DNA of 64,000 bases, taken from a phage. Positions 931-64,000 of the stretch are shown here, in pieces. The notes under the pieces are model-generated. The model searched no databases. It saw only the letters and a program-made list of their open reading frames with translations, and was not told the DNA's origin. Position 1 is the first letter of the stretch. Each line of letters starts with the position of its first letter. The position numbers and the translations under genes are program-made. The stretch lies in the sequence record PX880101.1, one strand, 5' to 3'.

Positions 931-3354
931 ATGAGCATGTGGTCGTTCGATTTTGAGTCATCCGGTTTGCTGGAAGACCCAGATCTTTATTATCACTGCG
1001 GTCTGTTTAAAGAGCTGAATAAGAACCGTTTTATGCTGTTCCTTCCTCTAAATGACCGCACACACTACTCCGAGGAGGATATAGAAAAGGCTAAGAACTT
1101 CATTCTGGCAAAGAAAACTCTTTATAAAGATTTTGAAGTTCGCATAGCAGATTTTTCGGAGTTGGAAGGTTGGCTTACAGGCAATTCCGACTGGTCACCA
1201 ACAGCTTTGAACTGCCATAACTGCTACAGTTATGACTTTATGCTGATGGAGAGATTGTCCGGTATTCATTTTGATATGTTCCGTGATCCTAAATGCATGG
1301 GGACTATCAACGACCACCAGGTTAACCTGTTTGATACGTTGGCGATGAGCCGAATTTTGTGGCCTGATCGCCCTCTACCAAAAGGTTGTCCGGACGCTGT
1401 ATTCAACCCGGTTACTAAGAAAATGCAGCCTGTTGGTCCTCACGGCCTTATGGCATGGGGCTACGCCCTTGGTAACCAGAAAGTTCAAATTGATGACTGG
1501 CGCGATCTTCCGTTGTGGAAGTATGTGGATCGTGTATTCGAGGACGTTATCATCCAGGAGCTGCTCTGGAAAGAGCTGGTAGCGGAATCAAAAGGTGTAT
1601 TCTACGGCAAATCTGACATGCAGAACTTTATGTACGATCCTGCCAAAGAGAAGCCGAAAGGGTTCAAGAAGATCACCTGGAAGAACGCATTACGCCGGGG
1701 TATGCTGCAGCACTTCCTGATGGAGCTGCAGGCCCGTCAGGGTGTATATTTCGACATAGATGGAGCTATTGCTTTACGTGACCGTTGTGATGCGTGGATG
1801 AAAGAGATCGCTGATCGTGTTGAACCTCAACTTCCTTTAAAAGAGTTGTCAATGTCTCAGCGGCCCAAGTTCCCTGAAAAGCCGTTTAACCAAGATGGGA
1901 CAATCTCCAATAATGGTTGGAAATGGTTAAAAGATAAGCTTGGCTATCCTGTGGACATGAGCGCTTTAGAGTTCAAAGCCCCACCTAAGCGAGCATTTAC
2001 CTCCACAGGGGATGTCAGTAAGATGGGGATAAAATGGTGTGAAGAGATGGGCTGTAAAGACCCTGATAAGATGGCTGATTTCTTGAGGGGCTATATTAAG
2101 GGCACCTCCACACCACAACCTTTACCTAAAGAGCTAATGGATCAGGCAATAAGTGATCTACAGCAGAAGCGAATGCCTGACTGCAAGATACCTATGAAAA
2201 TCAGCAATCAGGACGACATTAAGCGATACCTGATCAGTGCTGGTTGGCTTCCGACAATGTGGAGAACTAAGGATGTAACTAAAGACAGCAAGAAGAAAGC
2301 TCTACCTGATGCAGATGTTGATGCACGAGTATATGCATATATGGACGAGCTTTTAGAGTCAGAGTATTGTGACCTGATTATCAACTTCTGGAACAAAACT
2401 GATGCTAAGTTCCAGACAACCGTGCACAAGTTCCGAAGCTTTCCTAACTCCGAAAGGATTAAAAAGGAAGTATTCGGGAAAATACGTAGAAAAGCCAGGG
2501 CACTTATTACTTCTCCGCAACTGAAAGATACGTTTGGACACCTATGTCCGAATCTTGAAAAATTGAACGGAGAGATGGCTAAAGATATCGTCTTGTGGTT
2601 ATCCTTGCGAAACCGCAGATCGGTCCTTGATCCAATCAAGGAGGATAAGGTTGATACTGGTCTTCTTAATCACCCACGTTTGAAGATTGACCATAAGCTT
2701 CCTGCTAAAAGTTCTGGATTAACAAACACTTCCCGACAGAAACACAGTATTTGTGCGAACATGCCTAAACCATCTCCTAAAGTGGTTATGGGTAAAGAGA
2801 TGCGTAGTCTGTGGGGTGTTCCTCCAGGATACTTTGAGATTGGTATTGACGGGTCCAACTTAGAGCAGCTTATCGGGGCTTGGGGTGCCTTTGAGTTCGA
2901 CAACGGCTTGTATTATGATGTTGTAAGTAACGGGGACGCACACCAAAACAATGCTGAGGCATATACAAAAGTAGCAGGTAGAGAGGTGTCTCGTAACGAC
3001 GGTAAACCTATCACGTATGGGGTTATGTATGGGGCACAAAAAGATAAAGTTGCAGATATGCTGGACATCTCTCCAGAGTTGGGACAAAGGGTAATCGATG
3101 CACTCTGGGATGCCAACCCAGGTCTTAAGGGGCGCAAAGAGGATCTGGAGAAATTCTGGGAAGCAACAGGTAAGAAGTTTATCTACTCTTTTGATGGTCA
3201 TGCTATCTGGACCCGATCTAAACACTCTTTACTTAATGCATACCAACAAAATGGCGGTGCATCGTTGTGTGACTTAGTTGGAATACTCATGCACCACCAG
3301 ATGGTGAAGCGTGGGTGGTACGATGAAGGTGTTCGTCGTATTATTTATTACCAT
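931..3354 (+). CDS. DNA polymerase family A, exon 1 (3'-5' exonuclease plus polymerase motifs A and B)
   Basis: FDFESSG (Exo I), IDGSNLEQL (motif A), KPITYGVMYGA (motif B), NAYQQNGGASLCDL (helix before motif C); the unspliced frame ends IIYYH-K-stop at 3355-3360, before motif C is complete. Confidence 0.85.
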
Positions 3355-3630
3355 AAATAACATTGTGGCTTCATAGAGTAATCTATGTCGAATAACCTCT
3401 TTAACTGCGGGAAGCCTAAACCTTATGGCAAGGTAATCCGCAACGAAGCGCTCAAAAGAGCGAACGCTCAGAGGCCATTCCGAAAGGAAGTAGACCAGCA
3501 AGTGCGGTCGAAATGGGAGGATTCCTGTGGTTGCTTATCATAGGAATATGAGATGGTCCGATCCTACGTGAAAACGTATGGCTATGCACGTAAAGGTGCG
3601 GGGTAGCTTAACGACCTACCTGAACTATTG
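3355..3630 (+). other. Candidate group I self-splicing intron without ORF, inside the DNA polymerase gene
   Basis: Follows exon base U (3354) and ends in G (3630); GTGG at 3365-3368 can pair with exon end CCAU; GNRA-capped hairpins at 3372-3387 and 3478-3489; R-like UCAGAGGCCAU (3468-3478) and S-like AGAUGGUCC (3551-3559). Confidence 0.55.
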
Positions 3631-3984
3631 GATGAGTACCAACTTCAAGTCCCTGACACACCGAAGTATAAGACTGTGTACACCTTCGACACAATCGAAG
3701 AACTGGAAGCATTTAAGGCAGAGCAGGAGGCCAAACTTCATGTGTTCGACGGTCATAAGTACAAAAAGGCACGCAAGGATGAGGACGGAAACGAAGTGGT
3801 TGACAGAGACGGAAACACGGTGTACGATCCTATCCTGAATGATGACGGAAAGCTTGAACTTATCTGGAGCCCTGTGGGTGAAATGGTGGTGCATTGCTTC
3901 TGGCAAGCTTCTAAAATGATGGGCGTCCCGTTCCAGATCACAGGTGAATACTTGTGTGGTCGTAATTGGGGTGATTGTCACTAA
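3631..3984 (+). CDS. DNA polymerase family A, exon 2 (motif C Asp-Glu through conserved C-terminus)
   Basis: No ATG (only in-frame TTG at 3628); frame starts DEYQLQV, completing YH|DE motif C, and ends GRNWGDCH, like the T7 gp5 and Klenow C-termini. Confidence 0.7.
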   Translation, partial: DEYQLQVPDTPKYKTVYTFDTIEELEAFKAEQEAKLHVFDGHKYKKARKDEDGNEVVDRDGNTVYDPILNDDGKLELIWSPVGEMVVHCFWQASKMMGVPFQITGEYLCGRNWGDCH

Positions 3985-11265: not shown

Positions 11266-11457
11266 ATGGTAATTTTTAACCGGGATGGTATCATAGTTAG
11301 ACAGCACCCGTTCCTTGAATACTATCAAATTGAGCAATGGTGCTACGGGGATTGCAGTCACTCCTATGGGCAAAGTTGGGGATATCGCACAGTTTTTGAA
11401 TCAACAGACCTTGACAAAGTAAGACAGAAAGTTTTAGAACTTATTAACAACAAGTGA
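11266..11457 (+). CDS. hypothetical protein
   Basis: ORF downstream of the promoter. Confidence 0.5.
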   Translation: MVIFNRDGIIVRQHPFLEYYQIEQWCYGDCSHSYGQSWGYRTVFESTDLDKVRQKVLELINNK

Positions 11458-11466
11458 GTATGATAT

Positions 11467-11799
11467 ATGGTAACATTAGAAAGACGTAAAGCTATCGCCG
11501 CCACACTGGCAGACATCTTTTGGGATTGCAACTTAAAAGATACCAGAAATTGTGGCGCATCTGTAGATGTATTATTCCCACGGCCCACCATTGTTGCAAT
11601 GGGAAACCTGTTAAACGTAGTGTACGGAGCATGGGACAAAGAAGGTGGATTCTATATCTGGCAACCTGACTACAGAGCCTGGAAAGAGGTAAGGGGTGCG
11701 GTTGACTTTGGGCCTGCAAGTGCTAAGATGGATGGCTGGGAAATTTATGTTGGAAACGACATGAAGCTGAAAGGCGAGATTGTTTACTGGTTACCTTAA
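11467..11799 (+). CDS. hypothetical protein
   Basis: ORF in co-oriented array. Confidence 0.5.
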   Translation: MVTLERRKAIAATLADIFWDCNLKDTRNCGASVDVLFPRPTIVAMGNLLNVVYGAWDKEGGFYIWQPDYRAWKEVRGAVDFGPASAKMDGWEIYVGNDMKLKGEIVYWLP

Positions 11800-12581: not shown

Positions 12582-13598
12582 TACTTGAAAATTCCTGGCA
12601 TATCAAGTGTAAGGGGGATTTCTAAAATGGATTTCCTCCTTTTGATATTTCACCGGGCTGGATATTTTAAAATTCTTAGAAAATCAGAAAATGGATCGAA
12701 AACTAAAATGGATTTTTCAGAGTAGGCGCGACAAGCTGAATAACTCATCCTATCGTTTGCACCATATTCCAGGCCACCATTATAGATTTCCCACACATGC
12801 TAACCTCCCTCTACTAGAACTTCCTCCACTTGCCCTTAACCTTCTATGGTAACAATCTAACCACTATCTTGAAGTTGCGGTGCAGCTTTCCAAGTACTCG
12901 ATCTACTTTTCATTTCATGGCTTGGATTTTCTGAAAATTTTTCTCGATAAATTTCTCAGTACTCGATCTGTTTTTCGTTTTCTGAATCGGATTTTCTGGA
13001 AATCGTTCCGGATCTCGACCTGAAATTTTTGGGGACGAAATCGATTTTTCGTTTTCAGAAATGGATTTTTAAAATTTCTATATGGGAATATTTTATGGGA
13101 TACTGTTTTATAGGAAATTGTTACGGAGGGTAATTAGCATGCTAATTAAATTTATTAAATGCGAGGAGTTCTCATTTAGAATTTTGAATGATAATCATTC
13201 TCGTTTGCAGAATAACGGGCAGGCCCGGTGATTGTCTCCCGGCCCCTGTTGCCCCGGCTTGTTATTATAGTATCACACAGGACAAAGAAAGCAAGGATTT
13301 TTTGCATAAATTTTTAAATGATAATGATAACCGTTCTCATTTTATGCAGCGCCCATCCCCGGTGGTTGTCTCCCCCGTCACCGGTGCCTGCCGTCCTTTC
13401 GATAGGTATATTTTGCCACCTGGCGGGGCCGCTGTCAACACTTTTCAAAAAAAAATTTCTAACCTGATGCGCTGACCGCTGCAACCTGGCGGGGCCAGCC
13501 TGGCAGGGCCTAACTGACCAGGTAGGAGATAATGAAGGCTTGCAAACCTGGTGGGCCTATGCTATAGGATAGGTAACAATTGAAGAGGAGGTACAAAA
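12582..13598. repeat. Repeat-rich non-coding spacer (AAATGGATTT-type motifs, about 45-bp degenerate direct repeats, two about 60-bp tandem units)
   Basis: No convincing ORF; direct repeats read at 12620-12720, 12895-13075, 13185-13250 and 13313-13375. Confidence 0.55.
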
Positions 13599-13775
13599 AT
13601 GGAAGGTAATATGATCCCCCTGGAAAATGTAGCTATTAATGACACTGAGGCTATCGCCCTGGTTGAAAAGGCTATGGCGGGAGCGTTGGAACATAAAGAA
13701 GAGTACGAAAAAATGATGGTTAACCTGGCAGGGGCGGCGGCTGGAGAATTCTACCCAAAAAATAATTTTAACTAA
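13599..13775 (+). CDS. hypothetical protein (58 aa)
   Basis: ATG after GAAGAGGAGGT; not in the supplied ORF track. Confidence 0.4.
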   Translation: MEGNMIPLENVAINDTEAIALVEKAMAGALEHKEEYEKMMVNLAGAAAGEFYPKNNFN

Positions 13776-32303: not shown

Positions 32304-32624
32304 TCATTCTCCAAAGTCAATCTTTACTTTGCCTTTCCCCTTACCTTTCTTTCCACCGCATTTAGCCAGCTGACGTGCTGCAACATCTACCATACGGTCA
32401 GTTGCCTCGTAAGCATCACTGCCTTTAGCCTTGGCAATAACTTCTTTTCCAGAATTGTCAAAAATGAACGCCATAACTTCCTGGTGATCATTTTCAACTT
32501 TTACACTCACACGTGCATAGTTAACAGAGGGATGTAAACGCTCCAGCTTGGACATTTTGCGGGAAATAAAAGATACCATACCTTCTGTGATTTCTACATT
32601 GTTGCCAGTGATTTCAATTTGCAT
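32304..32624 (-). CDS. hpf: Ribosome hibernation promoting factor / RaiA-family protein (HPF homologue)
   Basis: MQIEITGNNVEITEGM...KLE...VKVE...AKAKGSDAYEATDRMVDVAARQLAK aligns along its length with E. coli HPF (recalled as MQLNITGNNVEITEAL...KLEQ...LKVEK...ASAEGQDMYAAIDGLIDKLARQLTK). Confidence 0.75.
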   Translation of the reverse strand: MQIEITGNNVEITEGMVSFISRKMSKLERLHPSVNYARVSVKVENDHQEVMAFIFDNSGKEVIAKAKGSDAYEATDRMVDVAARQLAKCGGKKGKGKGKVKIDFGE

Positions 32625-58966: not shown

Positions 58967-60250
58967 TCATTCCAGAACCTCCCAAGTGTCTGGGTCAACA
59001 TTTCGGACGCATATACCGACAGGGAATTGGTAGTTGTTGTCTTCTGTCCTTGATTGATATTTGAAGGTGACAAACTTGCCGATCATTTCCTGCATCCTGT
59101 CATAGCTACGCTCCTCGTGCGTGCCTTTCATCTTCATTTTAACAATAACACCTTCCTTGTCAACACAGATAAGAACACCTTCATCATTCTTATCTTTCTC
59201 AACGTCAATAACTTTCACCTCTGCGTCGTTGAACTTTTTCCATTTCAATGCTTCAGATGTTCGCTGACCGTACTCGTATTTACCGCAGAAATTACGCATG
59301 ATAGTACCTTCATATCCTTCGGACATGAATATACCAACAGATTCTTCGCAATGATCAACTGTGTACGCAAGCTCTGCGTCAACAACCTTGATATGGTCAA
59401 GCATCAGAGTGGTAACGGTATCCTCTGCATCCATAAGATCCTTGCAGCGTCCAGACTCTGTTTCTGGATCCCACCACACCTTGTCGCTAGGAATATCAAA
59501 AATGTGATACTCCAGATCGTAGCTACAGTACCCACCGTAACGCAAATCATCACGAACAGGCTCAACATCGACAGGAATATCTACCTTGTTGAAGTTTTTG
59601 TATGTTGATAAGCCTGCCTTAATTGCTGCATGACGGCGTTTTTTATCTGCCTCATAGTCTTTATCGATCTCGGCCTGAATCTCTTCCTGTGTGCGCCACC
59701 GTTTAGCAAGAGACACTATTTTCTGCAAAGGAAGACCATGAATGTATAGTTCCCCATCAAGTTGTTTAATCCCAGTGGTAGAATGGAAAGAACGAAGTTG
59801 CTCTAAAAGCTTTCCTTGAATAGGGTAGGACTTATTACCACGGGAAATAAATTTAGGCTCACCATTTTGGAAAACAACAAGCAGACGAAGGCCATCTAAC
59901 TTACGCAAGATCCAGCAAGGTAATTTAAGTGCCTTGCCACGCTTCAGGTAGTCATGCACCAGCATGGGTAAAAGATCAACACCCTGCTCGCAATCTTCCA
60001 TGTTTTCAACATACCCCAGACGGACTTGTTTTTCCCACTTGCTGATAGCCTCAAGCTCGGCCTGTTGCTCAGCTGTAGTCTCGTTGGCACGACCTACGTT
60101 CTTAGGTGTGCATACCGTCTCTTTGTACTGCAGTTTACCATCAAGCTTGCCAAACTCTACGATAACCTTATCACCATCCGTGAATACTTTCCACTGTTGG
60201 TAGCTGCCATCTTTATTCAGTGCGTACAGTGTTGTTTTGATCTGATGCAT
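58967..60250 (-). CDS. ATP-dependent DNA ligase
   Basis: Motif I KLDGLR (KxDGxR). Confidence 0.8.
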   Translation of the reverse strand: MHQIKTTLYALNKDGSYQQWKVFTDGDKVIVEFGKLDGKLQYKETVCTPKNVGRANETTAEQQAELEAISKWEKQVRLGYVENMEDCEQGVDLLPMLVHDYLKRGKALKLPCWILRKLDGLRLLVVFQNGEPKFISRGNKSYPIQGKLLEQLRSFHSTTGIKQLDGELYIHGLPLQKIVSLAKRWRTQEEIQAEIDKDYEADKKRRHAAIKAGLSTYKNFNKVDIPVDVEPVRDDLRYGGYCSYDLEYHIFDIPSDKVWWDPETESGRCKDLMDAEDTVTTLMLDHIKVVDAELAYTVDHCEESVGIFMSEGYEGTIMRNFCGKYEYGQRTSEALKWKKFNDAEVKVIDVEKDKNDEGVLICVDKEGVIVKMKMKGTHEERSYDRMQEMIGKFVTFKYQSRTEDNNYQFPVGICVRNVDPDTWEVLE

Positions 60251-60519
60251 TACTCGGTCTCTTCCTTAAAAATTTTAAACATCTCTTCTTTACTCATTAC
60301 CAACCAGTCTCCCATAAAGTCAACTAGCCAATCTCCCTGGTACAAGACAAGGTTACCAAAAGGCTCGACAAGCTCACACATGCGACGAAGATCTCTGGTC
60401 CGAACAGGTGACGATGTAAACACACCTGTATCAATCCACCGTTGCAGATCAGATACTGATGAAGAGCTTCCGTCAAACTGATGTGCTTCTACAGGTTTAG
60501 CAAGATTAAATAACGGCAT
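60250..60519 (-). CDS. hypothetical protein
   Basis: ORF. Confidence 0.45.
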   Translation of the reverse strand: MPLFNLAKPVEAHQFDGSSSSVSDLQRWIDTGVFTSSPVRTRDLRRMCELVEPFGNLVLYQGDWLVDFMGDWLVMSKEEMFKIFKEETE

Positions 60520-60814
60520 TGCAGTCCTCCTTCTGTAGTAGGTCTTTTATAGGATAAACAAGTAAGTGTGGGTCGTAATAACGTATAGTCCTATTCTGCC
60601 ACACTATGAACTTTATTACAACCAAATTTACAATATCTTTATCACCATGTAGCCCAACACACACATTTGTCCATATTTTGTGGTTGAAGACCTTGCTATC
60701 GATGTAGATTTTAGTGTCAAACTTATCTTCCATTCTACCAATAAGTTTGATCAGCTCCTTCATCTGGTCGCCAAACACAGCATCTTTTTCAAGATCTCTG
60801 GAATGCTTGTACAT
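60506..60814 (-). CDS. hypothetical protein
   Basis: ORF. Confidence 0.45.
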   Translation of the reverse strand: MYKHSRDLEKDAVFGDQMKELIKLIGRMEDKFDTKIYIDSKVFNHKIWTNVCVGLHGDKDIVNLVVIKFIVWQNRTIRYYDPHLLVYPIKDLLQKEDCNAVI

Positions 60815-60876
60815 AACTGACTACCTCACTGCATACTTTCCATAATAAGTAAAGCCGGGTAATCCCGGCTATGTTG

Positions 60877-61590
60877 TTAAATATACTCTGTTACATCCTT
60901 GAAGCTCGAAGGCTTCATAATCTTACCTTTACTGTCAAGGAATATAATAACTTTATTGCCGTTGTAGAACTCCTCTTTAGCAACGAAACCTTCGTAGCGA
61001 CCACCAAAACGACGCTCAAGATCTTTAATCTCCAACTCGATGAGTTGTTCAGCAGGCATATCTGCACTGGCACCGTGTGAATGCCGTAGATGGTTGATCC
61101 GTGCAAACTTACTGTCATTAGATTTTAGAACCTTCCGCATCATCCCACACACATCCCCGCTAAGCTGGAACAGCAAAGCTGTTGATAACTCCGCTAGTCG
61201 GTAAGATGACGCTCTTTGCTTGGATGTGTTTTTCGCAGCGATCAGTGTATCATAGAACTCACCGATCTTGAACTTAAGACCTCGCGGATTATCAAACAGG
61301 TTTGACCACTTTTCGTGGTTATCATTAACAAGATAAGCTGCATAACTTGTGACAACGTGAAGATCGCAGGCCTCTTTTAGCAGGTGATCTCCACCATCAC
61401 CTTTCTCCAGCTCTTCCAAAACCTCATTGAACTCTTCCTCAATGAAGCTAAGCTGTAATTCGAATGGTGTGTATGATTTTTTCACTTTAGCTGCCACACG
61501 GTTCCAGTTTTCCACCCAGTTGGCAGACCAAAGGTAGTTTTCAGGCTGGGACAGTTTTTCCAGGTTGTCGATCAGTTTAGTATTCAGCAT
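60877..61590 (-). CDS. hypothetical protein (possible MazG-like all-alpha NTP pyrophosphatase segment)
   Basis: EEEFNEVLEELEKGD...KEACDL resembles the MazG EExxE...E..D pattern; weak. Confidence 0.35.
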   Translation of the reverse strand: MLNTKLIDNLEKLSQPENYLWSANWVENWNRVAAKVKKSYTPFELQLSFIEEEFNEVLEELEKGDGGDHLLKEACDLHVVTSYAAYLVNDNHEKWSNLFDNPRGLKFKIGEFYDTLIAAKNTSKQRASSYRLAELSTALLFQLSGDVCGMMRKVLKSNDSKFARINHLRHSHGASADMPAEQLIELEIKDLERRFGGRYEGFVAKEEFYNGNKVIIFLDSKGKIMKPSSFKDVTEYI

Positions 61591-61603
61591 TAAAGGTCTC
61601 CTT

Positions 61604-62365
61604 TTAAAGTTCCATAAAGTTTTCTACAGTTTCAATAAATGCTTTATCAGAGAAAGCGTCAACAGCACCGTTAAACCATACAGGGATCCCGCGATCCTCA
61701 TATTGATAAAGGTCGCTACGTGAAATGCCACTTCCATCTGCACTCTGCGAATCATACTTGTTTACAATCAGCAGTTTTGTGCCTTTACAAGTAGCAGGAA
61801 ACAATTCCCAGTTAAAATTAATAACTGTGTTAGAACAACCTACCAGGATCACCATATCATTGCTTGTGAGAGATGTCAACAGGTCATACATGTCTGTATA
61901 CTTAGGAGCAACCTCACCGAAGAACACTACATTGGGCTTAACCCAGGTATACTTGCCTGTATCTACCTCCGTGTATCCGATATTTTTAATTACATCATTA
62001 CCTTCAGCATCTTCGTAGGTGATTTCAGGCAAATACCCGTGGACATGTAAAATATCTTCATGTTTTACACCAGCACGCTCCAGCAAATCATCTACATTGG
62101 TAGTAAGGTTGATCACACGACCAGACCAGCGGGAATACCACTCAGCGATCCGAAGATGTGCAAGGTTAGGATCAACACTGCCCAGAGCTACACGACGTGC
62201 ATTGTAAAAGTCATGCACCTTATAGTAGTTCTTGGCAAAGGTGTGGATGTTGCACACCTCATCGATGCTGAAATTCTCCCACATTGCAGTGCTACCAGAT
62301 CGGAAAGTGGGAATACCAGATTCAGCGCTCAAACCAGCACCGGAGATAATAATCAGTCGTCGCAT
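61604..62365 (-). CDS. Sir2-family NAD-dependent protein (sirtuin-like)
   Basis: ISGAGLSAESGIPTFR (Sir2 GAGISxxxGIPxFR motif) and TNVDDL. Confidence 0.75.
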   Translation of the reverse strand: MRRLIIISGAGLSAESGIPTFRSGSTAMWENFSIDEVCNIHTFAKNYYKVHDFYNARRVALGSVDPNLAHLRIAEWYSRWSGRVINLTTNVDDLLERAGVKHEDILHVHGYLPEITYEDAEGNDVIKNIGYTEVDTGKYTWVKPNVVFFGEVAPKYTDMYDLLTSLTSNDMVILVGCSNTVINFNWELFPATCKGTKLLIVNKYDSQSADGSGISRSDLYQYEDRGIPVWFNGAVDAFSDKAFIETVENFMEL

Positions 62366-62373
62366 AAGTGTCC

Positions 62374-62724
62374 TCAGTAGATGTTTTGTTTAATCTCTAT
62401 TCCAAACTTCTTGAATGAGTCAGCAGCAAGCATAAATTTACGAGCTGCCGATGGATTAGAAGTATGCACGAAAATAATCACGTTGTCAATAAGTGGTGGC
62501 TTTCCGAATACAAGTTTCTCCTCTAGCGCAGAGAAGCAGTCGTACCCTTCAAGCACTTCACCTAGATCATTGTCAAAATGCCACTCAGAAACGCGCCTGT
62601 AGAGCTTTCTATTATCGTTAATAAAATCCATGAACTCAGAAGAGTTCTTCAGCCAAAGAGCATCTTGGATTCCGTAATTTGACGGATCTCTCAAGTCATC
62701 TAGCCACACAATCAACTTCTTCAT
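62374..62724 (-). CDS. hypothetical protein, translationally coupled to the RNA ligase-like gene
   Basis: ATG overlaps the upstream stop (ATGA). Confidence 0.45.
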   Translation of the reverse strand: MKKLIVWLDDLRDPSNYGIQDALWLKNSSEFMDFINDNRKLYRRVSEWHFDNDLGEVLEGYDCFSALEEKLVFGKPPLIDNVIIFVHTSNPSAARKFMLAADSFKKFGIEIKQNIY

Positions 62725-63638
62725 TGCATATAGTCCTCGTTGTGAAAATAGCAATCAAGTATCTCACGGCGTTCCTGCTCCAGGAGGCAGTTCCACACAT
62801 CTTCTGTGTAATTGCTACGAATGAAGTTTACCATGCCATAAAACTCTTCGTCAATACGTTTAAAGATATCATCATCCCAAATCTTCCAAGCTTTACCCCT
62901 CATTACGGCCTTCCGTGCCAAATAGTATGGAGACTTGATCTTCAGCTGCAGGTCATAAGGGTAGTAAGGCTTACGGATCATATACCCTTCGCCCCTTGTT
63001 TCTGCAGCTAATTCTTTTGCATAGCTGAACGGGATTTCACGCACAGTGTGAGGACGTTTTGCACCAAGGTATTTGGCAATCCCATCTAAAGCTGCTTCTG
63101 GTAGCATTATTCCAGAATCATTATATCTGCAACCTATCAAATATGCGCCATGGTCTTCTTGAACAATATGCGGATCTGAAGGGTGACAAATTTCAAACAT
63201 GAATGTCATGTTTTCATTGCCCATAACCTTCTTGATAAGATCTAAATTACCACATTGCTCTTGGATGGTTTCCTTTGCAAGGTTACAATATGGAGAATCA
63301 AGAGACCCGGTTGTTGAGAACAATAGGTCACCTTTATGAGATGATACCACACCAAGGAATCCGTTCTTTTTCTCTACCGCAGTCACAAGCTTATTGTCAG
63401 GCAGGTTGGTGGAGTTTTCTCCCAAGTTAAACACTTTTGTGAAGGGCCATGCCACAACATTTCCTTCATTACCTACAACAATGCCTCGGCACTCCAGTAA
63501 ACGAGGGGACAAATGCCATAAATTGTTGTAAAATACTTTTCTAGCATATTTATAGATCTTTAACCCGAGATCTGGGTAATACCTACTGGTTACAAGACCT
63601 TTGTCAACTAGGTCGTCTGCATTAAAATACTTCATCAT
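62721..63638 (-). CDS. Putative RNA ligase (Rnl2-like nucleotidyltransferase)
   Basis: Motif I-like EKKNGFLG (compare T4 Rnl2 EKIHG), motif IV-like EGYMIRK, motif V-like LKIKSP. Confidence 0.5.
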   Translation of the reverse strand: MMKYFNADDLVDKGLVTSRYYPDLGLKIYKYARKVFYNNLWHLSPRLLECRGIVVGNEGNVVAWPFTKVFNLGENSTNLPDNKLVTAVEKKNGFLGVVSSHKGDLLFSTTGSLDSPYCNLAKETIQEQCGNLDLIKKVMGNENMTFMFEICHPSDPHIVQEDHGAYLIGCRYNDSGIMLPEAALDGIAKYLGAKRPHTVREIPFSYAKELAAETRGEGYMIRKPYYPYDLQLKIKSPYYLARKAVMRGKAWKIWDDDIFKRIDEEFYGMVNFIRSNYTEDVWNCLLEQERREILDCYFHNEDYMQ

Positions 63639-63699
63639 ACGTTCCTCATTTGTCGTTTTGTCAGTCTATCCTGTCACACAAATAACCTAGTGTCAACAC

Positions 63700-63728
63700 T
63701 TGAAATTAACAAAACAGTTAGATATACT
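63700..63728 (+). promoter_or_regulatory. sigma70-like promoter TTGAAA-N17-TATACT
   Basis: Hexamers about 30 nt upstream of the 63757 ATG. Confidence 0.5.
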
Positions 63729-63756
63729 ATCGTTGAAATTAAAACGGAGGGTCACT

Positions 63757-64000
63757 ATGTCTAAAATGCTATATATCGTGCGTGGTCTACCAAGGTCTGG
63801 CAAATCAACACTGGCAAATGCGCTATCTTTAGAGGGTCTGTATCCACATTTTGAGAACGACATGTTCTGGTATGACGATGACGGCAATTACAACTGGGAT
63901 GCAAGTAAAGTAACACTCGCAGCGAAATGGTGCAAAGATAACGTAGAAGATATGATGCGTATGGGATACGACCGTATCGTGGTAAGTAATACGTTTACAA
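63757..64000 (+). CDS. P-loop kinase, possible polynucleotide 5'-kinase (3' end outside window)
   Basis: GGAGGG SD; Walker A GLPRSGKST and later IVVSNTF resemble T4 Pnk (GCPGSGKST, VIISDTN); frame open to the window end. Confidence 0.45.
   Translation, partial: MSKMLYIVRGLPRSGKSTLANALSLEGLYPHFENDMFWYDDDGNYNWDASKVTLAAKWCKDNVEDMMRMGYDRIVVSNTFT

Follow-up and report, generated by a model that had tools for sequence, protein, structure and literature searches.

The stretch of phage DNA considered here (64,000 nucleotides, sequence record PX880101.1; hereafter, the window) belongs to a Vequintavirus (rV5-like) phage of Escherichia coli. At its far end lies a cluster of six genes, encoding an RNA ligase, a cREC protein, a sirtuin (Sir2), a MazG-like protein, a P-loop kinase, and a calcineurin-like metallophosphoesterase. 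We lean toward the view that this cluster is a module with which the phage repairs breaks in RNA, most likely tRNA, and that it joins a conserved core to an arm linked to nicotinamide adenine dinucleotide (NAD+). Domain and profile comparisons support the idea, put forward in an earlier annotation made from the sequence alone (hereafter, the initial annotation), that RNA end-healing and -sealing enzymes adjoin a true sirtuin-family NAD+ enzyme. The cluster holds up as a real and coherent feature that was already known, both from database annotation and from a 2022 prediction for this phage genus, to which we return at the end.

The gene cluster and its proteins

Bases 60800-64000 of the window share 99.9% DNA identity with Escherichia phage A6-1 and 99.8% with MaxTheCat, AlexBoehm, and EduardKellenberger, which are phages of the BASEL collection. 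The same segment is matched at a DNA identity of at least 90% by 121 deposited phage genomes, which are rV5-like myoviruses of ∼135 kb in the genus Vequintavirus. Because the DNA is kept in these 121 genomes, and because each module protein has relatives at 35 to 62% identity in other phage contigs, the open reading frames (ORFs) of the cluster are real genes and not chance ORFs. Near-identical records already label them RNA ligase, sirtuin-domain NAD-dependent deacetylase, hypothetical protein, and polynucleotide kinase. The parts of the cluster that fall within the window are as follows; lengths of the products are in amino acids (aa).

60853-60870, no strand assigned: terminator-like hairpin, palindromic and G+C-rich with a T-rich tail (consensus match)
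60877-61590, minus strand: MazG-like gene, 237 aa, fourth gene of the operon
61604-62365, minus strand: Sir2 (sirtuin) gene, 253 aa, Pfam SIR2
62374-62724, minus strand: cREC gene, 116 aa, Pfam PF20274
62721-63638, minus strand: RNA ligase gene, 305 aa, first gene of the operon, Pfam RNA_lig_T4_1
63639-63756, no strand assigned: divergent spacer of 118 bp, from the ligase start to the kinase start
63757-64000, plus strand: first 81 codons of the P-loop kinase gene, full length 136 aa

The kinase gene runs past the end of the window; in whole genomes, the metallophosphoesterase gene (184 aa) begins 8 nucleotides (nt) downstream of it, just outside the window. All six genes span at most 3.9 kb, here and in MaxTheCat. 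The Sir2 gene, the small gene next to it, the ligase gene, and the P-loop ORF were all found where the initial annotation had placed them, but its cluster stopped short of the MazG-like gene, the closing hairpin, and the downstream metallophosphoesterase.

The stop codon of the ligase gene and the ATG of the cREC gene share the sequence ATGA, a 4-nt overlap. A gap of 8 nt that includes GAGGA separates cREC from Sir2, and 13 nt that include AAGGAG lie between the Sir2 stop and the MazG-like start. The hairpin (AGCCGGGattaCCCGGCT plus its T-rich tail) begins 6 nt past the MazG-like stop codon and is terminator-like on both strands; to judge from its sequence, the minus-strand operon probably has its 3′ end here. 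From this tight packing and the closing hairpin, we conclude that the ligase, cREC, Sir2, and MazG-like genes form one four-gene operon. The spacer contains a promoter-like site at 63700-63728 (plus strand), and a GGAGGG Shine-Dalgarno sequence precedes the kinase ATG. A promoter scan of 60200-64000 returned 13 sites, compared to 9.0 ± 2.3 in shuffled sequence, which is no excess. The "divergent promoter region" first described is thus a divergent spacer whose promoter-like sites are no more frequent than shuffled sequence would give, and because of this a divergent promoter at 63639-63756 is suggestive only, with the gene layout as its basis.

Domain identities and intact catalytic motifs were established for all six proteins. 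The ligase matches Pfam RNA_lig_T4_1 at 1e-14. A single-sequence search with it against the PDB sequences gave no match; a profile built from 36 homologs matched T4 Rnl1 (5e-14) over the nucleotidyltransferase domain, and in the same search of PDB sequences it matched neither Rnl2 nor a DNA ligase. K90 (KKNG, motif I), E217-G218 (EGYM, motif IV), and K233/K235 (LKIK, motif V) are invariant in 36/36 homologs and align with the corresponding motifs of T4 Rnl1; the KKNG, EGYMIRK, and LKIK motifs noted at the outset are all present. Also kept are the Rnl1-specific N-terminal elements (the arginine of ECRG and the lysine and phenylalanine of PxxKxFN), and R51, K68, and F70 are invariant. The AlphaFold model of the ligase is confident (predicted local distance difference test, pLDDT, 94). 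Fold comparison gave values of 23.1 for T4 Rnl1, 21.2 to 22.0 for the fungal tRNA ligase domain Trl1-LIG, about 16 for the archaeal Rnl3 type, 12.4 for Rnl2, and 10.4 or less for DNA ligases. Because the modeled fold is closest to T4 Rnl1 and Trl1-LIG and far from Rnl2 and the DNA ligases, we assign the protein to the Rnl1/Trl1 clade, as a predicted ATP-dependent RNA ligase.

Several other identities for the ligase were considered and set aside. The label "Rnl2-like" given initially was dropped, since the profile matched T4 Rnl1 without matching Rnl2 and the fold values were 12.4 for Rnl2 versus 23.1 for Rnl1. A DNA ligase paralog at 62721-63638 was rejected on the fold values for DNA ligases, and orthology to RnlA on a TIGR02308 score of 38.8 bits versus an equivalog cutoff of 242. 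The "tail attachment" label found in many GenBank records was transferred from T4 gp63 and has no support here. A true ATP-dependent DNA ligase, with DNA_ligase_A_M and OB domains, is encoded at 58967-60250 (minus strand), 0.6 kb from the operon.

The profile alignment to T4 Rnl1 ends at motif V, and no T4-type C-terminal tRNA-specificity domain was found in the ligase. After motif V it has ∼65 residues, compared to ∼120 in T4 Rnl1, and these form a short and different helical tail. The protein belongs to a distinct short subfamily; this form occurs in 815 phage records, from phages of Escherichia, Pseudomonas, Streptomyces, Vibrio, and others.

The 116-aa product of the small gene matches Pfam cREC_REC (PF20274, "cyclic-phosphate processing receiver domain") at 4.3e-14, above the gathering score; it had no match in NCBIfam. 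The cREC family was defined in 2021 (PMC7824862) by the group that made the 2022 prediction. The protein has a receiver fold, with acidic residues D9-D10 after strand 1, D51 and D53 at the end of strand 3, and T88-S89 after strand 4. Profile score, fold, conserved acidic active-site residues, and the lack of a histidine-kinase partner all agree with membership in the family. To the eye, its invariant FDNDLG is similar to the DxD motif found in HAD acyl-phosphatases. What the initial annotation had called a "coupled unknown gene" is indeed coupled, through the ATGA shared with the ligase stop, but it is not unknown.

The Sir2 protein contains GAGLSAESGIPTFR, the motif that had first drawn attention to it, and matches Pfam SIR2 (PF02146) at 6.9e-28, with 98.2 bits versus a cutoff of 24. 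Among solved structures, it is closest to E. coli CobB (1S5P, 3e-21) and human SIRT5, with ∼45% identity over the N-terminal 100 residues. In 10 phage homologs, down to 33% identity, the elements GAGxSxxSG..FR, FYNxRR, TxNVDDL, HG, and FGE are invariant, including residues G9-A10-G11, S13, S16, F21-R22, N90, D92, and H109-G110. Also invariant are Y54 and R57 of the Tyr-x-x-Arg pocket, which align with CobB FYNARR. The protein scores 122.6 bits versus the NCBIfam CobB cutoff of 243 and falls under every CobB equivalog cutoff. The four-cysteine zinc module was not found: the protein is free of cysteine from H109 to F149, the 10 homologs conserve none in that region, and the zinc cysteines of CobB align to other residues. 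The phage sirtuins share a clade-specific C-terminal motif, GCSNxVINFNWELFP, and form a large clade that lies essentially on phage-sized contigs of 110 to 155 kb, including T5-like and Mydovirus phages. Its residues and profiles thus mark the protein as a true sirtuin-family member, predicted to be of class III (CobB/SIRT5-like) and zinc-less. No KptA homolog was found in the module and none is annotated in the genome; by analogy, the sirtuin can only be, at most, a functional analog of Tpt1/KptA. A 2026 paper on NARP3 (PMC13464706) deals with Sir2-HerA defense by the host and not with this phage sirtuin.

The P-loop ORF (plus strand) reads MSKMLYIVRGLPRSGKS before it leaves the window. Its 81 codons match phrog_2071 (4.2e-31), and the full-length MaxTheCat kinase matches AAA_33 (1e-10) and, over residues 3 to 128, phrog_505 "polynucleotide kinase" (4.7e-10). 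A single-sequence PDB search with the kinase returned only P-loop noise. Both GxxxxGK[ST] and D35, the Asp after strand 2, are invariant in 11 homologs. No fused C-terminal HAD (DxDxT) 3′-phosphatase was found, the full-length protein being the kinase domain only. We conclude that it is a putative stand-alone polynucleotide-kinase-like P-loop protein and not an ortholog of T4 Pnkp. The likeness to T4 polynucleotide kinase noticed initially holds for the kinase profiles, which match over the full length, but does not extend to orthology, given 136 aa and no HAD phosphatase. Nucleoside monophosphate (NMP) kinase families match over the P-loop only, and an NMP kinase was therefore rejected; it and a DNA ligase paralog were the identities that the initial annotation had named as fatal to its proposal, and neither is supported by fold or profile comparisons. 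The 737-position phrog_8238 is matched N-terminally by the kinase (positions 2 to 109) and C-terminally by the ligase (440 to 686), which points to the existence of a fused kinase-ligase relative.

The metallophosphoesterase scores 27.9 bits against Pfam Metallophos (cutoff, 21.5), its best solved relative is 1XM7 (1.8e-10), and its DxH, GD, GNH[DE], H, and GHxH motifs are all conserved in six homologs. The MazG-like protein, an all-alpha nucleotide pyrophosphohydrolase, matches phrog_671 "nucleotide pyrophosphohydrolase" (1.9e-21) and, weakly, Pfam PRA-PH (0.088); it had no match in NCBIfam, and an EEEFNE...EACD motif is visible in its sequence.

Conservation in other phage lineages

Seven phage contigs of ∼146 kb keep all six genes, on one strand despite rearrangement. 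Their order is phosphoesterase ... ligase-cREC-kinase-Sir2-DNA ligase ... MazG; five of the module proteins are 42 to 63% identical to those here, and the MazG-like protein is 32 to 36% identical. The phosphoesterase, ligase, and kinase genes are contiguous in three other phage contexts among the loci compared (L003, L024, and L025). In a Vibrio phage and a 125-kb metagenomic phage (L025), the genes of this trio often overlap, and neither cREC nor Sir2 adjoins them. L003 has the trio and cREC without Sir2, and a Pseudomonas-type contig has a ligase-kinase pair. We read the phosphoesterase, ligase, and kinase as a putative conserved healing-and-sealing core, and Sir2 and cREC as an apparently separable add-on.

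Other genes near members of these families were also recorded. In a 345-kb jumbo phage contig (L019, 7475-9180), a distant member of the Sir2 clade with 35% identity follows a NADAR gene (Pfam, 4.8e-53) at a distance of 0.5 kb; here the sirtuin has other, ADP-ribose-centered surroundings. L025 has a HAD_SAK_2 "Swiss-army-knife" HAD phosphatase gene (3322-3801) 2 kb upstream of the trio and a NADAR gene (11332-11706) 4.5 kb downstream of it. NAPRTase-like and PRPP-synthetase-like genes adjoin cREC or the ligase-kinase pair in L002 (1376-4107), L003 (642-3539), and L023 (7505-11404). Together, these two genes recall NARP1, a published pathway of NAD+ reconstitution to which PMC13464706 refers; no such pair is annotated in the Vequintavirus studied here.

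No tRNA genes were found in the window. In MaxTheCat (L001), six tRNA genes (Arg-AGA, Tyr, Lys, Thr, Ile-ATA, and Pro) lie at 12846-13658 of the locus, 3.5 to 4.7 kb past the point at which the window ends. Host anticodon nucleases are known to attack Lys and Tyr tRNAs. Because the tRNA cluster, with these two targets, closely follows the kinase-phosphoesterase operon on its downstream side, the phage has repair enzymes and replacement tRNAs next to each other.

Proposed repair pathway and alternatives

In the proposed core, the stand-alone P-loop kinase would phosphorylate the 5′-OH of the broken RNA, the metallophosphoesterase would open or remove a 2′,3′-cyclic, 2′, or 3′ phosphate, and the Rnl1/Trl1-type ligase would join the 3′-OH to the 5′-phosphate via K90-AMP. 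We regard this healing-and-sealing mechanism as quite likely. In the NAD+ arm, which we put forward tentatively, cREC would open cyclic phosphates, the zinc-less sirtuin would move the RNA 2′-phosphate to NAD+ in the manner of the unrelated Tpt1/KptA, and the MazG-like pyrophosphatase and phosphoesterases would degrade the ADP-ribose product. Core and arm together would amount to a Trl1/Tpt1-style pathway assembled from separate, partly nonhomologous proteins, and they would provide a second repair route for ends that block a T4-type ligase.

The NAD+ arm is favored by the translational coupling of ligase, cREC, and Sir2 and by the gene order of relatives, where cREC and Sir2 alternate with ligase and kinase. 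A chemical parallel between sirtuins and Tpt1, together with the retained anion pocket, may also be counted in its favor. The Tyr-x-x-Arg pocket of SIRT5 and CobB binds the anionic end of succinyl- or malonyl-lysine; such a pocket could, by analogy, fit a phosphate. In sirtuin chemistry, a substrate oxygen attacks C1″ of NAD+, and the ribose O2″ then attacks the acyl carbon. For Tpt1, PMC11417386 likewise has a substrate oxygen attacking C1″ of NAD+, after which the ribose O2″ attacks phosphorus. The most explicit form of the proposal, in which the sirtuin would be a true RNA 2′-phosphotransferase using this pocket, cREC would open cyclic phosphates via an aspartyl-phosphate, and the ligase would accept 2′-phosphate ends, we consider unlikely; if true, sirtuins would acquire a catalytic activity new to them, and cREC would have an activity assigned to it for the first time.

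A number of observations weigh against an RNA-repair module with an NAD+ arm. Sir2 and cREC are absent beside the trio in several lineages. Conversely, members of the Sir2 clade have no ligase, kinase, or cREC gene within 10 kb in L013 to L017 and L019, and likewise in many phages of 110 to 155 kb. The DNA ligase gene, which directly adjoins Sir2 in the 146-kb relatives, also travels with the block, and much of the conserved gene order among Vequintavirinae-like phages could reflect shared ancestry and not selection for linkage. In the phage analyzed here, the kinase P-loop reads GLPRSGKS: codon 13 (63793-63795) is AGG, which puts Arg at P-loop position 4, compared to Gly or Ser at this Walker A position in 11/11 aligned relatives, including the 99.8%-identical MaxTheCat. 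To judge from this substitution, Arg13 might weaken the kinase in this isolate. By analogy with bacterial Pnkp, the metallophosphoesterase could do all of the 3′-end healing, and if it does, the NAD+ arm is unnecessary. T4 Rnl1 does not join 2′-phosphate ends (PMC12440814). Finally, in the literature that we searched, neither this module nor cREC nor phage sirtuins have been the subject of biochemical or genetic experiments.

Much of this would also fit a cluster with two unrelated functions, in which the trio is a self-sufficient, Pnkp-style repair system and Sir2, cREC, and MazG leave RNA ends alone and act on soluble NAD+/ADP-ribose metabolites or on ADP-ribosyl marks (they might, for instance, destroy immune signals derived from NAD). 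The trio does stand alone in several lineages, Sir2 is found alone or next to the ADP-ribose-processing NADAR gene, and cREC is found without Sir2; moreover, cREC, which is often fused to Nudix domains, has derivatives of cyclic ADP-ribose among its predicted substrates, and NAD+ salvage-type genes (NAPRTase- and PRPP-synthetase-like) adjoin these genes in relatives. We nevertheless think a division into two functions rather improbable: here, ligase and cREC are coupled through ATGA with Sir2 only 8 nt farther on, the 146-kb relatives interleave cREC and Sir2 with ligase and kinase, and the genome has no annotated partner of the Macro, 2H, or Nudix type. A narrower suggestion is that the sirtuin is a CobB-like protein lysine deacylase that resets the acylation of host or phage proteins, its position by repair genes being incidental. 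The similarity to CobB and SIRT5 noted above, the retained catalytic His, Asn, and Asp with the Tyr-x-x-Arg acyl pocket, and the GenBank label of NAD-dependent deacetylase all speak for a deacylase. Set against them are a score (122.6 versus 243 bits) far under every NCBIfam CobB cutoff, the absence in 10/10 homologs of the zinc cysteines of the peptide-binding small domain, a clade that lies essentially on phage-sized contigs and has its own GCSNxVINFNWELFP motif, and sirtuin neighborhoods that repeatedly include RNA-end or ADP-ribose enzymes. We consider a deacylase placed here by chance decidedly unlikely.

The module might instead serve the phage's own RNAs, in the maturation or quality control of tRNAs or transcripts, and have nothing to do with counter-defense. 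Whole genomes of this phage type do carry the six tRNA genes (Arg, Tyr, Lys, Thr, Ile, and Pro), and a group I intron that splices itself interrupts the DNA polymerase gene. To our knowledge, however, neither group I introns nor bacterial-type tRNA maturation needs a ligase, and the only characterized phage Rnl1 system that we know of, T4 Rnl1 plus Pnkp, is a counter-defense against the anticodon nuclease PrrC. We give a role in the phage's own RNA metabolism very little weight. Repair of broken RNA by a conserved core with an NAD+-linked arm remains our preferred reading, and a counter-defense role coupled to NAD+ is plausible, as is suggested both here and in PMC9503650.

If the NAD+ arm is real, sirtuins would gain a nucleic acid substrate, and phages would have reinvented the eukaryotic Trl1/Tpt1 tRNA-ligation chemistry against tRNA-cleaving defenses of the PrrC and RloC types. 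This bears on phage host range and on the choice and engineering of therapeutic phages. The module is carried by E. coli phages that are easy to work with, namely, rV5 and several of the BASEL collection, so the biochemical question is directly approachable.

Other features of the phage and comparison with known systems

Three further features of the window lie away from the cluster. A group I catalytic intron (Rfam RF00028, 64.7 bits, E value of 4e-14) is located at 3345-3580 (plus strand), inside 931-3984, in the DNA polymerase gene; in the MaxTheCat record, the DNA polymerase coding sequence is joined from two pieces. The ∼2.5-kb segment 24283-26805, where plus- and minus-strand gene blocks converge, has no annotated gene, only short ORFs, and the lowest G+C content of the window (0.39). 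Among its small repeats are two exact copies of the 16-mer GGCGGGGCAGGGGTAG, spaced 148 bp from each other, and an 18-nt inverted repeat (24979 and 25113) without mismatches; Rfam and tRNA searches found nothing in this segment. At 32304-32624 (minus strand) is a homolog, with 95% DNA identity, of the MaxTheCat "ribosome hibernation factor" gene, an unusual translation-related gene for a phage.

The cluster is practically the same locus as the type 2 sirtuin RNA-repair neighborhood of Iyer, Burroughs, Anantharaman, and Aravind (2022, Viruses 14:1977, PMC9503650, section 3.7.3), with the same phage genus, the same gene set, and no substantive difference. The prototypes of that neighborhood are Escherichia phage V5 and Proteus phage Mydo, MazG is included in it, and its sirtuin was proposed to act like Tpt1/KptA on RNA 2′-phosphates derived from cyclic ends (PMC9503650). 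Here, too, a sirtuin, a T4-like ligase, cREC, a nucleotide kinase, MazG, and a calcineurin-like phosphoesterase are co-located in a medium-sized proteobacterial phage. The proposal in the initial annotation had therefore been published before as a prediction; the annotation mislabeled the ligase family and did not recognize cREC. As a genome-scan finding, the cluster adds nothing beyond existing annotation and the 2022 paper, and the interest that remains is in the biochemistry of the sirtuin and cREC. To PMC9503650 we add checks at the level of residues and folds and the reading of phosphoesterase, ligase, and kinase as a conserved core from which Sir2 and cREC are separable.

With T4 Rnl1 (gp63) and Pnkp (pseT), the module shares the Rnl1-type fold and motifs, a P-loop 5′-kinase with an Asp after strand 2, and the presumed job of healing and sealing cleaved tRNA. 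T4 Rnl1 has 374 aa, however, compared to the 305 aa of the ligase here with its short, different C-terminal helical tail, and T4 Pnkp has a fused HAD 3′-phosphatase, whereas here phosphate removal is assigned to the separate metallophosphoesterase and perhaps to cREC. Bacterial Pnkp (Clostridium thermocellum) combines the same three types of activity, kinase, metallophosphoesterase, and ligase, in one polypeptide; the phage has three genes, and the trio, which is contiguous in many phages, has the order phosphoesterase-ligase-kinase. In comparison with fungal and plant Trl1 (LIG-KIN-CPD) and Tpt1, the parts are again separate proteins, and the 2H-fold CPD of Trl1 and the ADP-ribosyltransferase-fold Tpt1 are unrelated to their proposed counterparts, cREC (receiver fold) and the sirtuin (sirtuin fold). 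CobB and SIRT5 share with the phage sirtuin the NAD+-binding Rossmann motifs, the catalytic His, and the Tyr-x-x-Arg pocket, but the phage protein lacks the zinc cysteines, has its own C-terminal motif, occurs on phage-sized contigs, and falls under the CobB cutoffs.

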